A DNA stretch of 64,000 bases from a virus (lineage: Duplodnaviria > Caudoviricetes), in the IMG/VR virus record IMGVR_UViG_3300025653_000030, positions 10,500 to 74,499 of that record. One strand, 5' to 3'. The notes under the pieces are model-generated. The model did no database searches and was not told the origin of the DNA. It saw only the letters and a program-made list of their open reading frames with translations. The translations under genes were made by a program, and so were the position numbers. This document shows positions 8,039 through 59,539 of the stretch, piece after piece. How positions within the stretch are numbered: the stretch's first letter is position 1; each line of letters starts with the position of its first letter.

Positions 8039-8593
8039 ATGGATACAACTAAGATACTACAACTAAAACTTACAAAAGAAAGTTTAGTTCCTTTTGAAAT
8101 CTTGGAAGATTATAAAATAGTTTTGGTAAATAAAGAAAACTATAATACTTATCTTCGTGAACTTTCCTATGTTTCACATTTAATGAAACAAGACTTCGAT
8201 TGGGTTGGGATTCCTGATGAACTTATGTTACATAGTAGGTTCGAAACACACAACTCTTCAGTACATTTATTTTACTACAACCATTCACCAATTGGTTGGA
8301 TGTGGGGTAATCCAAACCACACACCACTTTGGGAAGAAATGTATCAACCACTTAAGCCAAATGAGATGTTTGTTGGTGGTGCATTTGTTACTCAAAAATT
8401 AAAAAACAAACCAAAAGGATGTGGAGTTAGTATGTATCATTTAACTCTAAAAAAGTTTTTAGAGTATGATGGAGTTGATTGTTTGTATTCACATGCTGAC
8501 ACTTGGAATGATAAATCAATTCATATTTGTTATAAAGTGGGTTGGTATGATTTTAATTTTATAAAGGAGAATAATGGCAACACAGAACATTAG
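8039..8593 (+). CDS. GNAT-family N-acetyltransferase-like protein
   Basis: FVGGAFV…PKGCG (motif A-like) and WNDKSIHICYKVGW (motif B N..S....K.GF-like). Confidence 0.6.
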   Translation: MDTTKILQLKLTKESLVPFEILEDYKIVLVNKENYNTYLRELSYVSHLMKQDFDWVGIPDELMLHSRFETHNSSVHLFYYNHSPIGWMWGNPNHTPLWEEMYQPLKPNEMFVGGAFVTQKLKNKPKGCGVSMYHLTLKKFLEYDGVDCLYSHADTWNDKSIHICYKVGWYDFNFIKENNGNTEH

Positions 8594-15774: not shown

Positions 15775-17049
15775 ATGAAATTCAGAACATTACTATTGGG
15801 GTTATCCGCCCTATTTGTGGCATTTAACGCGGCTTTCTTTTCAGTTAGTGGTTTATCTAAACTATTCGCTGGTGCTTCACTATCAGTAATGTTAATGGCA
15901 AGTTCATTAGAATTAGCAAAACTTATTACGGCTGGTTATCTTTACAACTATTGGGAAAAGATAAACAAAGTATTTAGATGGTACTTGGTAACAGGTGTTG
16001 TTATACTTGTATTAATTACTTCACTTGGTATCTATGGATTCCTTACATCTGCATTTCAAGACACCTTTAATCAATTCTCAGTAAATGAAAAAGAAAAAAC
16101 ATTCCTACAACAAAAAGAAAAGTTCTACTCGGATGATGTTGCAAGATATGATGAAGAGCTTGAAAGAATATCTAATAATATTAGTACTCTTTCCAATGCT
16201 AAATCACAATCAATCCAAGTACGGGACACATCGGTTGTGGGGGGTGTTAGAACCACGATATCCACGGCTGAGTTACGCTTGGCACAAAGTAGAATCAATG
16301 TGGAAGAAGAAAATCGTAAAGGTGTTCAAGCGAAAAGAGAAGTAGCCGCTGATTCATTACAATCTATTCAGTTAAAGATTTTAGATTTAGATACAAACTT
16401 AGAAGGTGCATCTGAATTAGGACCACTACAATATCTAAGTGGATTAACTGGATATGGAATGGATAGAATCATCAACTGGTTAATCTTAATCATTATCTTT
16501 GTGTTCGACCCTCTTGCAGTTGCACTTGTAGTTGCATTTAACAATGCTTTAAAAGTTGATAAAGGAGTTGTTGATAAACAGAAAGTAATTCGTAAGAGAG
16601 AGTTATATGATGAAGTACCTGAAGAAGAGGTAATGGATGAATTAGATAATGATGAAGATGAAGAAGAAATTGTTGAAGAAGAGGAAGAACTTACAGAACT
16701 ACAAAAAACATTGTTAATGGATGTAGAAGATGAGGAAGAAGTTCTACCAGATGAAGCAAGAGGATTTGCTCCACCAATAGAACAAGATTTTGATAAAGAA
16801 GATTTAAATAAAGATGGTGAAGTAACCGAAGAAGAAAGAAGAAAGTTCTATGAACAAGGTGGATGGTCAAATTCTTATAATGGAAAAGATTACTGGCAAC
16901 ATCCTTGGTTTGATTGGAAAAAAACTGAAAGATGGATTAATAATAGACAAGCCGTAAACTTCTGGCTTAACCATCGAGGTGGTACAATTAGAACATTGGA
17001 TAACTTGAAAGATAATTATCCTGATGATTTCACAAAAAAAACTTACTAA
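15775..17049 (+). CDS. multi-pass membrane protein with coiled coil, acidic tract and EF-hand-like motif
   Basis: Three N-terminal TM helices, coiled coil, a fourth TM, Glu/Asp tract, DLNKDGEVTEEE. Confidence 0.8.
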   Translation: MKFRTLLLGLSALFVAFNAAFFSVSGLSKLFAGASLSVMLMASSLELAKLITAGYLYNYWEKINKVFRWYLVTGVVILVLITSLGIYGFLTSAFQDTFNQFSVNEKEKTFLQQKEKFYSDDVARYDEELERISNNISTLSNAKSQSIQVRDTSVVGGVRTTISTAELRLAQSRINVEEENRKGVQAKREVAADSLQSIQLKILDLDTNLEGASELGPLQYLSGLTGYGMDRIINWLILIIIFVFDPLAVALVVAFNNALKVDKGVVDKQKVIRKRELYDEVPEEEVMDELDNDEDEEEIVEEEEELTELQKTLLMDVEDEEEVLPDEARGFAPPIEQDFDKEDLNKDGEVTEEERRKFYEQGGWSNSYNGKDYWQHPWFDWKKTERWINNRQAVNFWLNHRGGTIRTLDNLKDNYPDDFTKKTY

Positions 17050-51672: not shown

Positions 51673-52833
51673 ATGTTAAAGACAATACCAAAATCAAGCG
51701 TAAATCAAAGAAGCTTCAAAGTTAATAAAACTTGGGAAGTTAGTAATACCGATTATCCTATAATATCGGGTTCTTATGATACTATACTTTCATCATTTGA
51801 TAGTGGTAGTGCAACAACTCAAGAAGGTGTTTATACAGGACCTCTTTTTAAATCGATTAAATCTCAATATTATACTGATATTGGAAATCCATTTGTTCTC
51901 AAAGGTAGAATGGATAATGTTGGTGGTAGAGATGAAAGAACAATAGGAACTAATGGTTTTGTAATTGCATTACCCCAAAGTAAATATGGTGAAGGAATAC
52001 AACCTGAGAGTTTATTATTAAGTGATTTAACAAATGATGATGTTTATAGTGATGATGGGAATAGTAATATAACATCTCAAAATCCAAGATATAGTTTAAA
52101 AGAAATTGATTTAGAAAGTGGAGTAATTGTAGTATCTGATTTAGATGATGGGGAGTTTACAGGTTCTCTTTGGTCAACACCTGGTGAACCGGCCTTTGAT
52201 ATGGAATCTGGTTTAGCAAAAATGACATTCAACAATGATACAGATTCATTTTATATAGTACGAATAGATTTAGAAGCTGGTACTTTAACAACTGAACTAC
52301 AATTAGATTTTGGTGGTTTAGATATTGATGAAATTAGATTTGGTAATATATTCTATTCAGATGGATTAATTGTATTAAATGATACATTAAGTTCATTCAA
52401 TCAATACACAATGAAATTTAATTCAACAAAAACAATAAATGAATTAGAAGTATTGGTTACATCTAAGGCTGGGGAATTTAACTATTCACAGAATCCAACT
52501 GCAGTAGAAGTTGATGTAAGTGGTTCATATGATTTCCCAACGAGTGCAATATTCAACTCAAGACCAGCTGGTACTAAAAAGATAAAAGTTATTAATGATA
52601 TTAAAAGAAGAGAACAATATAGTGGTAGTATAGACCATACTGTAAGTGGTTCATGGGATGATTACCATGCTTCTTCATCAGTAGACCCTACTGGTTCTTA
52701 TTTATCTACTTATATATCTACAATTGGATTGTATGATAAGAGTGGAGAAATGATTGCAGTAGCTAAATTACCACAACCAATTAAAAATTTACCAGATTAT
52801 GATATGAACTTTATTGTTCGTTTAGATACATAA
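51673..52833 (+). CDS. putative tail structural protein
   Basis: EFNYSQNPT…ISTIGLYD..GE.IAVAKLPQPI shared with 50357. Confidence 0.65.
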   Translation: MLKTIPKSSVNQRSFKVNKTWEVSNTDYPIISGSYDTILSSFDSGSATTQEGVYTGPLFKSIKSQYYTDIGNPFVLKGRMDNVGGRDERTIGTNGFVIALPQSKYGEGIQPESLLLSDLTNDDVYSDDGNSNITSQNPRYSLKEIDLESGVIVVSDLDDGEFTGSLWSTPGEPAFDMESGLAKMTFNNDTDSFYIVRIDLEAGTLTTELQLDFGGLDIDEIRFGNIFYSDGLIVLNDTLSSFNQYTMKFNSTKTINELEVLVTSKAGEFNYSQNPTAVEVDVSGSYDFPTSAIFNSRPAGTKKIKVINDIKRREQYSGSIDHTVSGSWDDYHASSSVDPTGSYLSTYISTIGLYDKSGEMIAVAKLPQPIKNLPDYDMNFIVRLDT

Positions 52834-53274: not shown

Positions 53275-53853
53275 TTGGGCTTAATTAAAAACAATGCTCA
53301 GAAATGGGCATTTATTCACATACCAAAGACTGGCGGAACTTCACTAACTTCTATAATACAAAATATAGAAGGTAGTGAACTCGTTGCCGTCCATGACTCA
53401 ATAAGAGTATTTGAAGATGTTTCTGACTTCTTCATATTTACTATTGTGAGAAATCCATTTACAAGGATAGCATCTGCTTATTCTCACCGGCTCCGAAAAA
53501 ATGAGTATAAAAAATCATTCGGAGAGTTTATAACAGAATTGAGTGAAAATCATTTAGATTTGATTCCTCAAAGTTATTATATCAATGCGGGTAAAGATGA
53601 AAACAAAGAAGTTTCATTTATAGCAAAATATGAGAACTATACACACGACATACAAAAGATATTAAAAAAGATTAATCATCGTTCTTCTATACCTCATTTA
53701 AACAGAAATCCAATATATGATAAACATCCCCACTTGAATCAAGAAAAGTTTTACAGAAACTTATATAGTCAAGATTGGATGATTGAAAATATATTAGAAA
53801 GGTATAAGGATGACTTCAAGATTTTTAACTATGAGTTGGACTTACCAAGGTAG
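53275..53853 (+). CDS. sulfotransferase (Sulfotransfer_2-like)
   Basis: FIHIPKTGGTS (5'-PSB), VRNPFTRIASAY (3'-PB); TTG start. Confidence 0.88.
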   Translation: MGLIKNNAQKWAFIHIPKTGGTSLTSIIQNIEGSELVAVHDSIRVFEDVSDFFIFTIVRNPFTRIASAYSHRLRKNEYKKSFGEFITELSENHLDLIPQSYYINAGKDENKEVSFIAKYENYTHDIQKILKKINHRSSIPHLNRNPIYDKHPHLNQEKFYRNLYSQDWMIENILERYKDDFKIFNYELDLPR

Positions 53854-54283
53854 ACCTATAACAGAAATATCTGATATGCCTGAAGGTACTATTGGATTTA
53901 TATACAAAATAACAAATCACCAAACAGGTGAATATTATATAGGGAAAAAATCCTTATATTCTAAACGAACTTTACCACCACTAAAAGGTTATAAAAGAAA
54001 AAGAAAGGTTATAAAAGAATCTAAATGGTTAGATTATCGTTCTTCAAATACTTCAGTTCAGTTGTGGTTTCACGAAAGCGAAGCTGCAAAATTAGAAGGA
54101 AATAACGATAAAATAAACGATAGTTTAGAATTAAAAATACTAAGATTCTGCAGTACCCCAAAATCCTTAACTTATTACGAAGTAGAAGAATTATTCCAAC
54201 ATAGAGTGTTATCTGATGAATTATCACTCAATGATAATATTTTGGGAAAATTTTTTAGAAAAGACTTGGATATTACGGAATAA
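53831..54283 (+). CDS. GIY-YIG-family nuclease-like protein
   Basis: GFIYKITN…YYIGKK; start moved to MSWTY. Confidence 0.7.
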   Translation: MSWTYQGRPITEISDMPEGTIGFIYKITNHQTGEYYIGKKSLYSKRTLPPLKGYKRKRKVIKESKWLDYRSSNTSVQLWFHESEAAKLEGNNDKINDSLELKILRFCSTPKSLTYYEVEELFQHRVLSDELSLNDNILGKFFRKDLDITE

Positions 54284-54315: not shown

Positions 54316-55260
54316 ATGCTCTCACACCACGAGAAACAACAGGTTATAAACATATTAGATGATGTGTTGGGTCCTGGTACATCTATGAAAAATGATGAAC
54401 AGGCACACTATTGTCCCTTTTGTCATCACCATAAAAAAAAGTTACAAATTAACTTAAAAACTCAAAAATGGCATTGTTGGGTTTGTGATGCAAAAGGAAA
54501 AAGAATCAACAGATTACTTAAAAGACTTCATGTAGATTCTCGTAGATTAAAACAAATTTATGAGATTTATGGTGATGATTATGTAGTTTATTCGAAAGAT
54601 ACCGAAGATGAAAAGGTAGAACTTAGGTTACCTAATGAGTTTCAATCACTGTTAAAAGTACCAAAGGGTAAGATAAATCCTGTGTACAGAAAGGCTCTTA
54701 AGTATGCTGAAGATAGAGGTATTACTAAAGAAGATATTACAAAGTATAATATCGGTTATTGCGATTCTGGTCATTATGCCAATCGTATTATTATTCCATC
54801 TTATGATTCTGATAATAGACTCAATTACTTCATCGCGAGGTCTGTATTTGCTGAGGAAAAATTTAAGTATAAAAATCCACCAGTATCGAAAAATGTTATC
54901 ATGTTCGAAAACCAAATAAATTGGGATGAGCCTATAACTTTAGTAGAAGGTGTATTTGATGCAATGGCGGTGAAGAGAAATGCCATTCCTATATTGGGTA
55001 AGTTTGTTCCTAAAAAGTTAAATGATGCTATATTTAAAAATGGAGTAAAGAGTGTTAACATCCTACTCGATGAAGATGCTCAACAAGAAGCGTTACGATA
55101 CACTATGCAATTTACCAATCAAGGTATAAAGACAAAAAATATTATTCCATCTGATAAAGATGCATCTGAAATGGGATTCTCAGAAGTAAATTCAAAACTA
55201 AAAGAAACAGAAGAAACTGGCTTTAGTGATATCATATCACAAAAGCTAAAAGGGTTATGA
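54316..55260 (+). CDS. DNA primase (DnaG-type, zinc finger plus TOPRIM)
   Basis: CPFCHH…WHCWVC, RIIIP, NYFIAR, VEGVFDA, LDEDA, KDASE. Confidence 0.92.
   Translation: MLSHHEKQQVINILDDVLGPGTSMKNDEQAHYCPFCHHHKKKLQINLKTQKWHCWVCDAKGKRINRLLKRLHVDSRRLKQIYEIYGDDYVVYSKDTEDEKVELRLPNEFQSLLKVPKGKINPVYRKALKYAEDRGITKEDITKYNIGYCDSGHYANRIIIPSYDSDNRLNYFIARSVFAEEKFKYKNPPVSKNVIMFENQINWDEPITLVEGVFDAMAVKRNAIPILGKFVPKKLNDAIFKNGVKSVNILLDEDAQQEALRYTMQFTNQGIKTKNIIPSDKDASEMGFSEVNSKLKETEETGFSDIISQKLKGL
54704..54919 (+). CDS. candidate overprinted single-pass membrane microprotein inside primase (+1 frame)
   Basis: 71 aa with a ~28-residue uncharged hydrophobic helix; host-gene codons here almost all end in T/C. Confidence 0.4.
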   Translation: MLKIEVLLKKILQSIISVIAILVIMPIVLLFHLMILIIDSITSSRGLYLLRKNLSIKIHQYRKMLSCSKTK

Positions 55261-56380: not shown

Positions 56381-59300
56381 ATGATAATTAATAAAGTTTA
56401 TCACTTGGCAGATTTACATATTCGTAATCTCCAAAGACACAAAGAATACAGACAAGTATTCAAAAAATTCTTAAAACAAGTAAAAGAAGATAAAATCGAG
56501 GATTCCCTCATTTATATTGCTGGTGATATTGCTCATGCTAAAACTGAGATGTCACCCGAACTCGTACACGAAATTAGTTGGTTTCTCACCGAGTGTGCGA
56601 AGTTAAGAGAAACTGTGTTAATCACAGGTAATCATGATTGTAATTTAAATAATTCCCACAGACTAGATGTACTCACACCAATTATCGAAAATCTTGGAAA
56701 TAATCGAATTCATTATCTTCGTGATACTGGTATCTATAATATCCATAATCTTACTTTTGTTGTCTATTCTATATTGGATGACAAGGAAAATTGGCCTAAA
56801 GGAGATACCGTTGATGGAGAAAATAAAATCGTTTTATTTCACGGACCAGTAAACAAAGCCCAAACTGATATAGGCTATACCGTTTCTTCAAACTCATTTC
56901 AAGTAGATATGTTCGATGGATACGATATGGCCATGTTGGGTGATATCCATAAGAGACAAACATTCGGACCTGGTTATGAACACATTGCTTATGCAGGTTC
57001 AATGATTCAACAGAATCATGGTGAGTTATTAGAGAATCATGGTTATTTACTTTGGGATATTCCAACACGAACTTTTACAGAACACCATATCCACAATGAT
57101 TATGGATTCTTAACAGTTGATGTAGTTGATGGTAAGATACCTCAATGGGTGTATGATGAAGTTGGTACTAAACTTCCAAAGTATCCAAGATTAAGATTGA
57201 GATTCACAAGAACAGAAGCAAGTGATATGAAGAGAAGAATAACTGAACTAAAGAAGTTATTCAAAGTTGCTGAAGTTACTGTAACGAGAACCGATACAAT
57301 CGGACAACTAAAAACAAATCAAAAGGTAAATAAAAATATTGTTGGTGATGTTAAAAACGAAACTTTCCAAAACCAACTCATCAGAGATTACTTAGAAAGA
57401 CAGTATCTATTAGAAGATGAAGAGTTAGATAGGATTGCGGAAATCAACTCAGAGTTAAATGGACAGATAGATGATTCAGATTCAGCAGGTAACATCTTAT
57501 GGACACCTAAAGAGTTTGAGTTCTCTAATATGTTCTCTTATGGTGAAGGTAACAAAGTAAGGTTTAATAAGGCTCAAGGTATCGTTGGTATCTTCGCTCC
57601 AAATGCCTCTGGTAAATCCTCTCTCTTCGATGCATTATCATTTTGTATATATGATAAGACTTCTCGTACAAACATCTCTAAGAACATCTTAAACAACCGT
57701 AAAACGAACTTCTATTGTAAGTTTAACTTCGAGATAGATGGAATTGATTATTATATTGAAAGAAGAGCCAAATATGTTAGAAAACAAACATCGGTTAAAG
57801 TAGATGTAGATTTTTGGAGAGATAACAATGGAGTTATAGAATCACTCAATGGTGAACAAAGAAAAGATACTAATAAAGAAATAGAAAAGTACTTAGGTAA
57901 GTTCGAGGATTTTGTTTTAACTGCACTATCCTTACAAGGAAATAATGCACTATTCATTGATAAATCACAATCGGAAAGAAAAGAAATCTTATCTCAATTC
58001 ATTGGTGTAAACATCTTTGATAAATTATATCAAAAGGCTGCTGATGAGAATAGAGACAATGCAACACTTATCAGAAAATTTAAGAGTGATGATTTTACGA
58101 CAAAATTAGCTCAAATCGACACTGATTTAAAAACAAACAAAAACGAATATAAGTTGTTAGAGGTTTCTCAAAAATCTTTAAAGGACGAAGAAGATGTATT
58201 GAACAAAAGGATTATATCCCTAAACGAGAAAATCGTTAAGTTGAATGCTGATAGTGGAGTTTCAATCGAAGAGTTAGAAAAAAGATTGAAAAACCTCGAA
58301 ACCAAAAAGGATGGGGTTTCAACCACAAAAGGTTCGGTTCAAGAAAGAATCACCTTTAGAGAAGAACAACAAATTACTTTAGAAGAAATCTTAGATAAGT
58401 TTGATGAAGAAGATTTAGAAGAAGGAATTACAAAATTAAAAAGATTAAGAAAAGATTTATCTAACATTGATTCTGAAATAGAAAAAATTAATATTAAGTT
58501 AGAATCTTTATACGAAAGAAAACAGCACTTAGATTCACACAAATACAATGAAGAGTGTGATATCTGTATGGAAAATTCTAAATCTATTTTAGATACAAAA
58601 TCTGAAGTAGAATCAAAGATAAAGGAGTTGGAAGAATCTTTACAACACAATGAAAAAGAAAAGTTAGATTTAAACATTGAGATTGATTCTTTGAAAGGAT
58701 ATGAAGATGAGTGGGATAAGTATAAAGATGCTAAAGATAAAGAGGATAAATTAGATAGAGAAATATCCCAACTTATCAACAAGTTATCAACAACCGAAAC
58801 TGAAGAAATCCGATTAGATACACAAATTGCTCAACAGCAACAACTTATCGAAGAATATTATAAGAATGAGAAACAAATTCAGAAGAATAAAGAAATCAGA
58901 GATGAGATTAGTGGAGTAAGAGAAAAACTTACAATTATTAAGGATGAACTCAAAGGAGTAAATACAGATATCCTTAAGTTAAATGGTAAAGTTTCTGCTC
59001 TTCAAAATCAAAAAGAAACAATCGAAGATAGAATTAATGAAGTAAAAGAATTAGAATCACAAAGTAGATTGTTTGATTTCTATCTGAATGCATTATCTAA
59101 AGATGGTGTATCTTATGAATTGATTGAAAAGGCATTACCAATGATTGAAGGTGAGGTAAATAATATCTTAGCTCAAATCGTAGAGTTTGGAATGCAATTA
59201 GAGATTGATGGTAAGAACATTAATGCTTACTTAGTGTATGGAGACCAAAGATGGAGTTTGGAAATGTGTAGTGGTATGGAAAGATTTATTAGTGGTTTAG

Positions 59301-59539
59301 CAATTAGAGTTGCTTTAATCAATGTATGTAATCTACCAAGACCTAATTTCCTTGTGATAGATGAAGGATTTGGTACATTAGATAGTGAGAACCTACAATC
59401 TTTATTTATGTTGTTTACATATCTTAAAACTCAGTTTGATTTCGTTATGATTATTTCACATATCGATTCAATGAGAGATGTTGTAGATGGTCTTATTGAG
59501 ATAAAGAAAGAAAAAGGATTTTCCCAAGTTAAGTTTTAG
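56381..59539 (+). CDS. fused SbcD/Mre11 nuclease - SbcC/Rad50 ATPase (gp47-gp46-like)
   Basis: HLADLH, GDIAH, GNHD, GDIH; Walker A APNASGKSS; zinc hook CDIC; CSGME; Walker B IDEGFGTLD; one continuous ORF. Confidence 0.92.
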   Translation: MIINKVYHLADLHIRNLQRHKEYRQVFKKFLKQVKEDKIEDSLIYIAGDIAHAKTEMSPELVHEISWFLTECAKLRETVLITGNHDCNLNNSHRLDVLTPIIENLGNNRIHYLRDTGIYNIHNLTFVVYSILDDKENWPKGDTVDGENKIVLFHGPVNKAQTDIGYTVSSNSFQVDMFDGYDMAMLGDIHKRQTFGPGYEHIAYAGSMIQQNHGELLENHGYLLWDIPTRTFTEHHIHNDYGFLTVDVVDGKIPQWVYDEVGTKLPKYPRLRLRFTRTEASDMKRRITELKKLFKVAEVTVTRTDTIGQLKTNQKVNKNIVGDVKNETFQNQLIRDYLERQYLLEDEELDRIAEINSELNGQIDDSDSAGNILWTPKEFEFSNMFSYGEGNKVRFNKAQGIVGIFAPNASGKSSLFDALSFCIYDKTSRTNISKNILNNRKTNFYCKFNFEIDGIDYYIERRAKYVRKQTSVKVDVDFWRDNNGVIESLNGEQRKDTNKEIEKYLGKFEDFVLTALSLQGNNALFIDKSQSERKEILSQFIGVNIFDKLYQKAADENRDNATLIRKFKSDDFTTKLAQIDTDLKTNKNEYKLLEVSQKSLKDEEDVLNKRIISLNEKIVKLNADSGVSIEELEKRLKNLETKKDGVSTTKGSVQERITFREEQQITLEEILDKFDEEDLEEGITKLKRLRKDLSNIDSEIEKINIKLESLYERKQHLDSHKYNEECDICMENSKSILDTKSEVESKIKELEESLQHNEKEKLDLNIEIDSLKGYEDEWDKYKDAKDKEDKLDREISQLINKLSTTETEEIRLDTQIAQQQQLIEEYYKNEKQIQKNKEIRDEISGVREKLTIIKDELKGVNTDILKLNGKVSALQNQKETIEDRINEVKELESQSRLFDFYLNALSKDGVSYELIEKALPMIEGEVNNILAQIVEFGMQLEIDGKNINAYLVYGDQRWSLEMCSGMERFISGLAIRVALINVCNLPRPNFLVIDEGFGTLDSENLQSLFMLFTYLKTQFDFVMIISHIDSMRDVVDGLIEIKKEKGFSQVKF
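56667..56852 (+). CDS. candidate overprinted single-pass membrane microprotein inside the nuclease domain (+1 frame)
   Basis: 61 aa, TM FIIFVILVSIISIILLLLSILYWM then RK; 21 consecutive T/C-ending host codons. Confidence 0.42.
   Translation: MYSHQLSKILEIIEFIIFVILVSIISIILLLLSILYWMTRKIGLKEIPLMEKIKSFYFTDQ

Follow-up and report, generated by a model that had tools for sequence, protein, structure and literature searches.

Evidence for a gene overprinted in the +1 frame of a phage primase gene and predicted to encode a membrane microprotein

Very small phages are well known for genes nested out of frame inside other genes. To our knowledge, such genes have rarely been demonstrated in large double-stranded DNA (dsDNA) phages, and annotation pipelines never call them. 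In phage T7, the small +1-frame open reading frames (ORFs) 4.1 and 4.2 are annotated inside gene 4 (primase/helicase), and we know of no published comparative or functional evidence of selection on either. Holins and other small phage membrane effectors, such as T4 Imm and Sp and SPO1 gp56, are alike in having 60 to 90 amino acids (aa), one membrane helix, and a highly charged C-terminal tail. In phiX174, the T-ending codons of gene D give E its Leu/Ile-rich N-terminal membrane helix (PMC8227390). The dsDNA phage lambda carries Rz1, the gene of a small envelope protein, nested in the +1 frame of Rz (PMC6139136), and the gnd gene of Escherichia coli contains GndA, a 36-aa microprotein encoded on the same strand in a shifted frame, for which genetic data indicate an independent function and which associates with membrane complexes (PMC11230408).

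Here, we describe a +1-frame ORF that lies wholly within a gene for a DnaG-like DNA primase and on the same strand (Table 1). The window under analysis, a stretch of 64,000 nucleotides, belongs to a 74.5-kb IMG/VR phage record that is only 43% complete; its G+C content is 31%, and almost all of its genes are on the plus strand. Three complete relatives measure 213.6, 276.0, and 288.7 kb, one of them with direct terminal repeats, and the lineage is therefore one of jumbo-size phages. The primase gave weak Pfam matches to DNAG_N, Zn_ribbon_DnaG, and Toprim_3 and no sequence match in the PDB. When it was compared with annotated phage primases by tblastn, the nearest cultured relatives were found in the Flavobacterium phage immuto group (42% identity), and identity to the primase of Microcystis phage Mel-JY01 was 36%. 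The primase gene is surrounded by genes for a SegE-like endonuclease, a 372-aa protein without assigned function, and SbcCD. In phage Mel-JY01, a GIY-YIG gene likewise lies directly upstream of the primase gene.

Table 1. Coordinates of the features discussed, given as positions in the window
Feature	Position	Strand	Remarks
SegE-like GIY-YIG endonuclease gene	53810-54283	+	Pfam E=9e-23; directly upstream of primase
DnaG-like DNA primase gene (host, ancestral frame)	54316-55260	+	314 aa; from ORF listing, Pfam, and tblastn
Antisense ORF	54652-54915	-	87 codons, TTG start; same triplet register as primase
GAAAGG, Shine-Dalgarno-like purine block	54689-54694	+	9 nt upstream of internal ATG; weak support
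Putative overprinted +1-frame ORF	54704-54919	+	71 codons plus TAA; 64-87 codons in relatives
ATG start of the putative overprinted ORF	54704-54706	+	Tyr TAT plus G of the next codon
Predicted hydrophobic helix	54734-54817	+	Residues 11-38, core about 15-35; T-rich primase third positions
Juxtamembrane motif DSITSS	54818-54835	+	Rare C-ending primase codons CTC-AAT-TAC-TTC-ATC
Basic C-terminal tail	54836-54916	+	Primase 4-fold sites G-enriched; mean net charge +6.8
Second +1 ORF, predicted single-pass membrane product	56667-56852	+	Inside SbcCD-like gene 56381-59539

This arrangement resembles that of phiX174 E in several respects. The ORF is fully nested in an older gene and read in its +1 frame, T-ending codons in that gene yield an N-terminal membrane helix followed by a basic C-terminal part, and many relatives have a Pro inside the helix. 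However, database searches returned no match between the two sequences, and while phiX174 is a single-stranded DNA phage of 5.4 kb, the host gene here encodes a replication enzyme and the complete relatives reach 214 to 289 kb. The embedded +1 gene for a small envelope protein is also the architecture of lambda Rz1 in Rz. Rz1 is nevertheless a secreted lipoprotein with a lipobox and a partner of the product of its containing gene, whereas the ORF described here, set in a primase gene, is predicted to encode a membrane helix whose basic tail lies in the cytoplasm. An embedded o-spanin of the Rz1 type was thus rejected, as the N-terminus carries no lipobox and the host gene does not encode an i-spanin. 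With regard to the T7 ORFs, which share the location inside a primase gene, the +1 peptide showed no similarity to 4.2, the product of 4.1 is hydrophilic with no membrane helix (translation judged by eye), and gp4 has another primase architecture. GndA is similarly a nested same-strand microprotein, but it is bacterial, half the size, and unrelated in sequence, and the evidence there is genetic while the evidence here is evolutionary. Finally, the predicted product is small, with a membrane helix and a charged C-terminus, as holin-like proteins are, yet no match to a holin, Imm, or Sp family was obtained in Pfam or PHROGs. We consider a holin less likely given this lack of a family match, the lack of an adjoining endolysin, and the position inside a replication gene. 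The ORF would add a new family to an established class of nested genes, in this case from a large dsDNA phage.

A preliminary description, made from the sequence alone, had reported a 71-aa +1 ORF with an uncharged helix of about 28 residues followed by a basic tail, and these features are present as claimed, the uncharged stretch occupying residues 11 to 38. Its codon counts also proved exact, with 17 consecutive primase codons ending in T or C (54745-54795) and 28 of 30 up to 54834, and the codons that it called locally uncommon (TGC, GCC, CTC, GCG, and AGG) each make up 3 to 6% of their own synonymous family in the window. To obtain a null for the single sequence, the primase protein was kept fixed and synonymous codons were either resampled from window usage or shuffled within the gene. 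Such ORFs were rarely produced, a +1 ATG-initiated ORF of at least 71 codons being found in 0.4% of trials and a run of at least 17 T/C-ending codons in 0.1 to 0.8%. Under synonymous shuffling, the primase +1 ORF was the strongest outlier among the 55 genes of the window (P about 0.004 per gene). Considering that 55 genes were tested, and that 1.85 of them were expected to contain a +1 ORF of at least 60 codons while 4 were seen to do so, the signal fails multiple testing unaided, and the single-sequence statistics are by themselves only moderately suggestive of an ORF beyond chance. The caveat that +1 frames of such genes are hydrophobic by default was well founded, as the stop-free null is already similar to a transmembrane segment, with a mean maximum 19-residue hydropathy of 2.1 versus 3.05 for the observed peptide. 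The helix by itself therefore proves little.

Comparison with related phages offered much stronger evidence. Relatives were collected from four IMG/VR scans, in which roughly 490 were detected, and about 130 primase genes were compared, namely, an ingroup of 69 unique genes (69 to 91% primase identity), six further nested relatives (65 to 68% identity), and a sister clade of 56 unique Flavobacterium phage immuto-like genes. Most ingroup pairs differ at 40 to 70% of their 4-fold degenerate sites, where saturation at this base composition lies near 58%, and the ingroup therefore amounts to 7 to 10 effectively independent lineages. The number of +1 stops expected was calculated from each protein sequence and from the codon usage of the gene itself outside the ORF. 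Inside the ORF, 4.49 to 4.94 stops were expected per unique ingroup sequence and only 0.17 to 0.42 were observed, whereas the remainder of the primase gene contained 19.4 stops for 20.3 expected. Although the probability of the frame being open by chance is about 0.0003 to 0.003 per lineage, 61 of the 69 unique relatives possess both the open frame and the ATG despite their near-saturated synonymous sites. The frame thus stays open far more often than expected from the primase sequence and the codon usage of the gene, and it is purifying selection that keeps it so.

The codons involved show how the stops are avoided. ATA is almost absent from six conserved Ile codons that precede an A or a G, while it represents 45% of Ile codons elsewhere, and the conserved Leu is encoded by CTC or CTT and never by TTA, the codon of 58% of Leu residues elsewhere. 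When changes were counted as parsimony events on the tree, only 2 of the 38 synonymous changes at the conserved Ile codons of the ORF led to ATA, in comparison to 105 of 156 changes involving ATA at Ile codons outside the ORF (Fisher P=6e-13; P=1e-10 for context-matched sites). In contrast, the same primase residues in the 56 unique sister-clade sequences showed no such avoidance, with 5.64 stops observed for 5.40 expected and with ATA, TTA, and CTA used at residues where the ingroup avoids them. The distant primases of Mel-JY01 and LR756508 also have stops in the +1 frame. The overprinted gene hence arose after the split from the immuto-like phages.

A control scan was performed over the syntenic region of ten related genomes, three of them complete (214, 276, and 289 kb), and covered 33 genes and 4758 segments of 45 codons in the +1 and +2 frames. 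The scan was well calibrated, with 9518 stops expected versus 9130 observed and 14401 versus 14419. Two ORFs stood out as extreme from a background that began near 1e-5 to 1e-6, and the primase +1 ORF was one of them, with 1 stop observed for 36.8 expected (P=4e-15). For most of the family, +1 stops and missing ATG codons are not found, synonymous variation is not normal, and shuffles do not yield such ORFs frequently.

The composition of the synonymous sites follows the predicted peptide. Third positions of primase codons are second positions of +1-frame codons, and the 4-fold sites under the helix showed frequencies of 0.67 for T and 0.10 for A, in comparison to 0.40 and 0.47 outside the ORF. 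At the same helix columns, the sister clade showed 0.20 for T and 0.59 for A, and the frequency of A reached 0.33 in clades where the ORF has decayed. Under the basic tail, it is G that is enriched (0.20 versus 0.07 outside). Furthermore, the rare codons CTC-AAT-TAC-TTC-ATC, which spell SITSS in the +1 frame, were kept in 50 to 59 of the 61 intact relatives. At these residues, which belong to the primase motif LNYFIARS, their place is taken by TTA/TTG/CTA, TAT, TTT, and ATT in the sister clade and in the decayed relatives. The avoidance of ATA and TTA, the T and G composition, and the rare C-ending codons, all relaxed in the decayed clades, bear out the proposal that synonymous sites are constrained as the +1 frame requires. 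Hydropathy was also above the stop-free null in each of the 18 sequences tested (P of 0.000 to 0.08 each). Selection on this locus thus shapes the amino acid composition of the +1 product as well.

An alignment of 41 peptides of 64 to 87 residues revealed that M1 and L29 are invariant, followed by a near-invariant hydrophobic block, D39, and I41-T42-S43-S44. In some lineages, the helix accommodates E, R, Q, or W, and the last 6 to 7 residues are dispensable given that forms of 64 or 65 codons occur in relatives. An AlphaFold2 model based on this alignment (mean pLDDT of 85.8) consisted of a helix at residues 2 to 43, a kink at residue 44, and a second helix at residues 45 to 70. Trypsin would cut the tail into very short peptides only and leave the helix as a single, very hydrophobic peptide of about 35 residues, and shotgun proteomics is therefore unlikely to be informative. 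The positive-inside rule is an established basis for reading membrane topology from charge. With a mean net charge of +1.4 at the N-terminus and +6.8 in the tail (residue 39 to the end), an N-out/C-in topology is predicted.

Searches of protein databases returned no Pfam match for the peptide, scattered weak matches in PHROGs with none for the peptide of the window itself, and generic look-alikes with an N-terminal helix in the ESM Atlas, below the recognition threshold. Among 5.8 billion proteins, only four matches were obtained, all of them frameshift chimeras of the same locus, and thus no free-standing homologue was found there. These four proteins come from other assemblies and switch between the +1 and primase frames, apparently through indels or sequencing errors in the primase gene, which indicates that gene callers report the +1 frame only when the primase is broken.

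The internal ATG is the first ATG, GTG, or TTG codon past the upstream +1 stop at 54674-54676. It was kept in 63 of 69 relatives, and all six cases of ACG were within two decayed clades. Stops in the +1 frame occurred at the expected rate right up to this codon, 37% and 12% of sequences carrying one at the two codons that precede it. The GAAAGG block upstream owes one of its G residues to the rarer Lys codon AAG, which was found in 53 of 66 relatives at this column versus 26 to 30% elsewhere; AAGG or AGGA motifs precede about 20 to 30% of the genes of the window. However, event counts placed neither the ATG nor the AAG column above certain other Tyr and Lys columns in conservation. The start site is consequently assigned mostly from where the stop-free zone begins and from the joint loss of the ATG and the frame.

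Fourteen unique relatives (8 plus 6) nested within the ingroup, in three to four clades, do not have the gene. In two decayed clades, ACG replaces ATG and the frame also contains either an internal stop or, within the helix, charged residues, and one relative retains the ATG with early +1 stops. A six-member clade has ATC or ACG at the start and 3 to 4 stops per sequence, near the neutral expectation of 4.5 to 4.9. In the decayed relatives, the invariant LNYFIARS motif of the primase is again encoded by common codons, and independent clades have lost the rare codons jointly with the ATG and the open frame. The overprinted gene was therefore lost independently several times, which makes it dispensable, and it is absent from viable lineages that include the 289-kb genome with terminal repeats. 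Unlike phiX174 E, it is thus unlikely to be the sole lysis gene. A single-gene lysis protein of the E type was rejected on the basis of these losses and of the lack of any PHROG, Pfam, or database relative, and a classical lysis role is the less likely one for the +1 product. Taken together, the stop depletion, the sister-clade control, the decayed relatives, and the rarity of such ORFs in shuffles support the preliminary claim of a hidden membrane-microprotein gene inside the primase gene, and we consider it very likely that a real protein-coding gene is overprinted in the +1 frame.

Other explanations were considered for these observations. Non-coding constraint, such as a binding site, an origin, an internal promoter, or a requirement on the speed of primase translation, might fix T and C at the third positions and leave the open frame as a by-product. 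Such a constraint would be in line with a 20-nt block around 54817-54836 that is nearly invariant, synonymous sites included, and with a regional 4-fold diversity that is only modestly lowered (0.40 to 0.44 versus 0.50 to 0.68). Nevertheless, the constrained zone spans 65 codons and is bounded by the ATG and the stop, it is precisely the stop-forming codons that are removed while T/C exchanges remain free, and the composition turns from T to G where the peptide turns from helix to basic tail. Moreover, RNAalifold detected no conserved structure in 20 diverse copies (-3.3 kcal/mol), a scan for promoters and terminators revealed no terminator-like site and promoter-like sites no commoner than in shuffles, the sister clade is unconstrained at the same primase residues, and the ATG, the frame, and the rare codons vanish jointly in independent clades. 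We thus regard a non-coding origin of the pattern as improbable. An unselected ORF arising by chance from T-ending codon usage would agree with the default hydrophobicity of the +1 frame and with a single-sequence P of 0.004 that fails correction for 55 genes, but it is hardly compatible with openness being kept across lineages whose synonymous sites are saturated, with the event-based Fisher P of 6e-13, with the lack of stop avoidance in the sister clade, or with a P of 4e-15 in a well-calibrated genome-wide scan, and we find it very improbable.

A similarly small probability was assigned to a programmed +1 (or -2) frameshift near codon 130, by which the zinc-finger N-terminal domain of the primase would be fused to the membrane helix and the +1 ORF would have no initiation of its own. 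Indeed, neither the ATG nor the Shine-Dalgarno-like block is significantly conserved when taken singly, and four database proteins join both frames, although they resemble indels or assembly errors. Since +1 stops continue right up to the ATG, however, there is almost no room for a shift site; each loss of the ATG is accompanied by decay of the frame, and the conserved codons that precede it show no evident slippery or stall motif. Shifts to the +1 frame are also rare in phages. Finally, selection could act on the antisense ORF rather than on the +1 ORF, as antisense stops are depleted in this region (2.75 expected, 0.46 observed). Yet only 26 of the 61 intact relatives have this frame open, stops being spread over seven columns, and the antisense frame cannot account for the avoidance of ATA at Ile codons, while its stop depletion is explained by the avoidance of TCA and TTA that the +1 frame imposes. 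The antisense ORF was therefore rejected as a by-product of the +1 constraint, and we give its selection hardly any credence.

If a protein-coding gene is indeed overprinted in the primase gene, its ORF would be carried on the primase mRNA, in line with the co-transcription suggested in the preliminary description, and translation would begin at its own internal ATG, probably aided by the GAAAGG block. The 64- to 87-residue product would comprise a short N-terminus placed outside and one helix inserted in the membrane; the conserved polar stretch DSITSS and a kink would lead from there into a second, strongly basic helix reaching into the cytoplasm. As the gene would be expressed with replication genes, an inner-membrane effector made alongside the replication proteins, in early or middle infection, appears to be the most likely role. 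In the absence of a homologue of known function, this role is a guess, and such an effector might act in superinfection exclusion or interfere with host division, envelope, or energy functions.

The primase ORF provides a clean natural example of gene birth by overprinting. It constitutes a natural experiment in which the gain is dated after the split from the immuto-like phages and dozens of diverged carriers are available along with several independent losses, which show neutral decay at the same primase residues. It is also a good system in which to study how an old gene, through its T-rich third positions, can give rise to a new membrane protein and how the constraints of two frames are reconciled in a conserved catalytic domain, as well as to calibrate detectors of overlapping genes.

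The other extreme outlier of the scan, and its top one (P=2e-16), was the +1 ORF that starts at 56667 within the SbcCD-like gene. Its first 48 codons contained 0.62 stops for 3.95 expected and were open in 43 of 55 unique relatives. Intact lineages use CTT or CTC for Leu in place of TTA, and the frequency of T at 4-fold sites under the helix reached 0.81. This ORF has no sequence similarity to the primase ORF and was lost in other lineages; it is probably a second overprinted gene. We lean toward the view that genes have been born by overprinting repeatedly in this large-phage lineage, in which at least two replication or recombination genes, for the primase and the SbcCD-like nuclease, would each harbor a conserved +1 gene whose product is a single-pass membrane microprotein ending in a basic tail, such genes being born from T-ending codons of the host frame and then lost independently in different sublineages. 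If so, these phages would contain a hidden set of membrane microproteins that are invisible to gene callers. Because the genomes are so large, genome compaction is not a plausible driver of the overlaps, and the case would favor overlaps arising for novelty over compression. The same comparison of expected and observed stops also pointed to the second gene close by, and AT-rich phage genomes may therefore conceal others.

Several other +1 frames of the window were noted along the way. Two ORFs were longer than single-sequence shuffles predict, one of 56 codons at 51776 in gene 51673-52833 (P of 0.01), a gene with no outlier segment in the comparative scan, and one of 61 codons at 8217 in gene 8039-8593 (P of 0.015), for which orthologues were too few for that scan. 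A third candidate from the scan, a very basic 86-codon +1 ORF at 16085-16345 (plus strand) inside 15775-17049, showed 4 stops for 28.4 expected over 7 genomes (P=1.5e-8), but the ATG and a fully open frame were present in only 3 of the 7, and we did not find it convincing. At about 58700-58900, where the window has only a 30-codon ORF starting with TTG, the +1 frame of the SbcC-like coiled-coil part of gene 56381-59539 contained 18 stops across relatives for 47.2 expected (P=1e-6).
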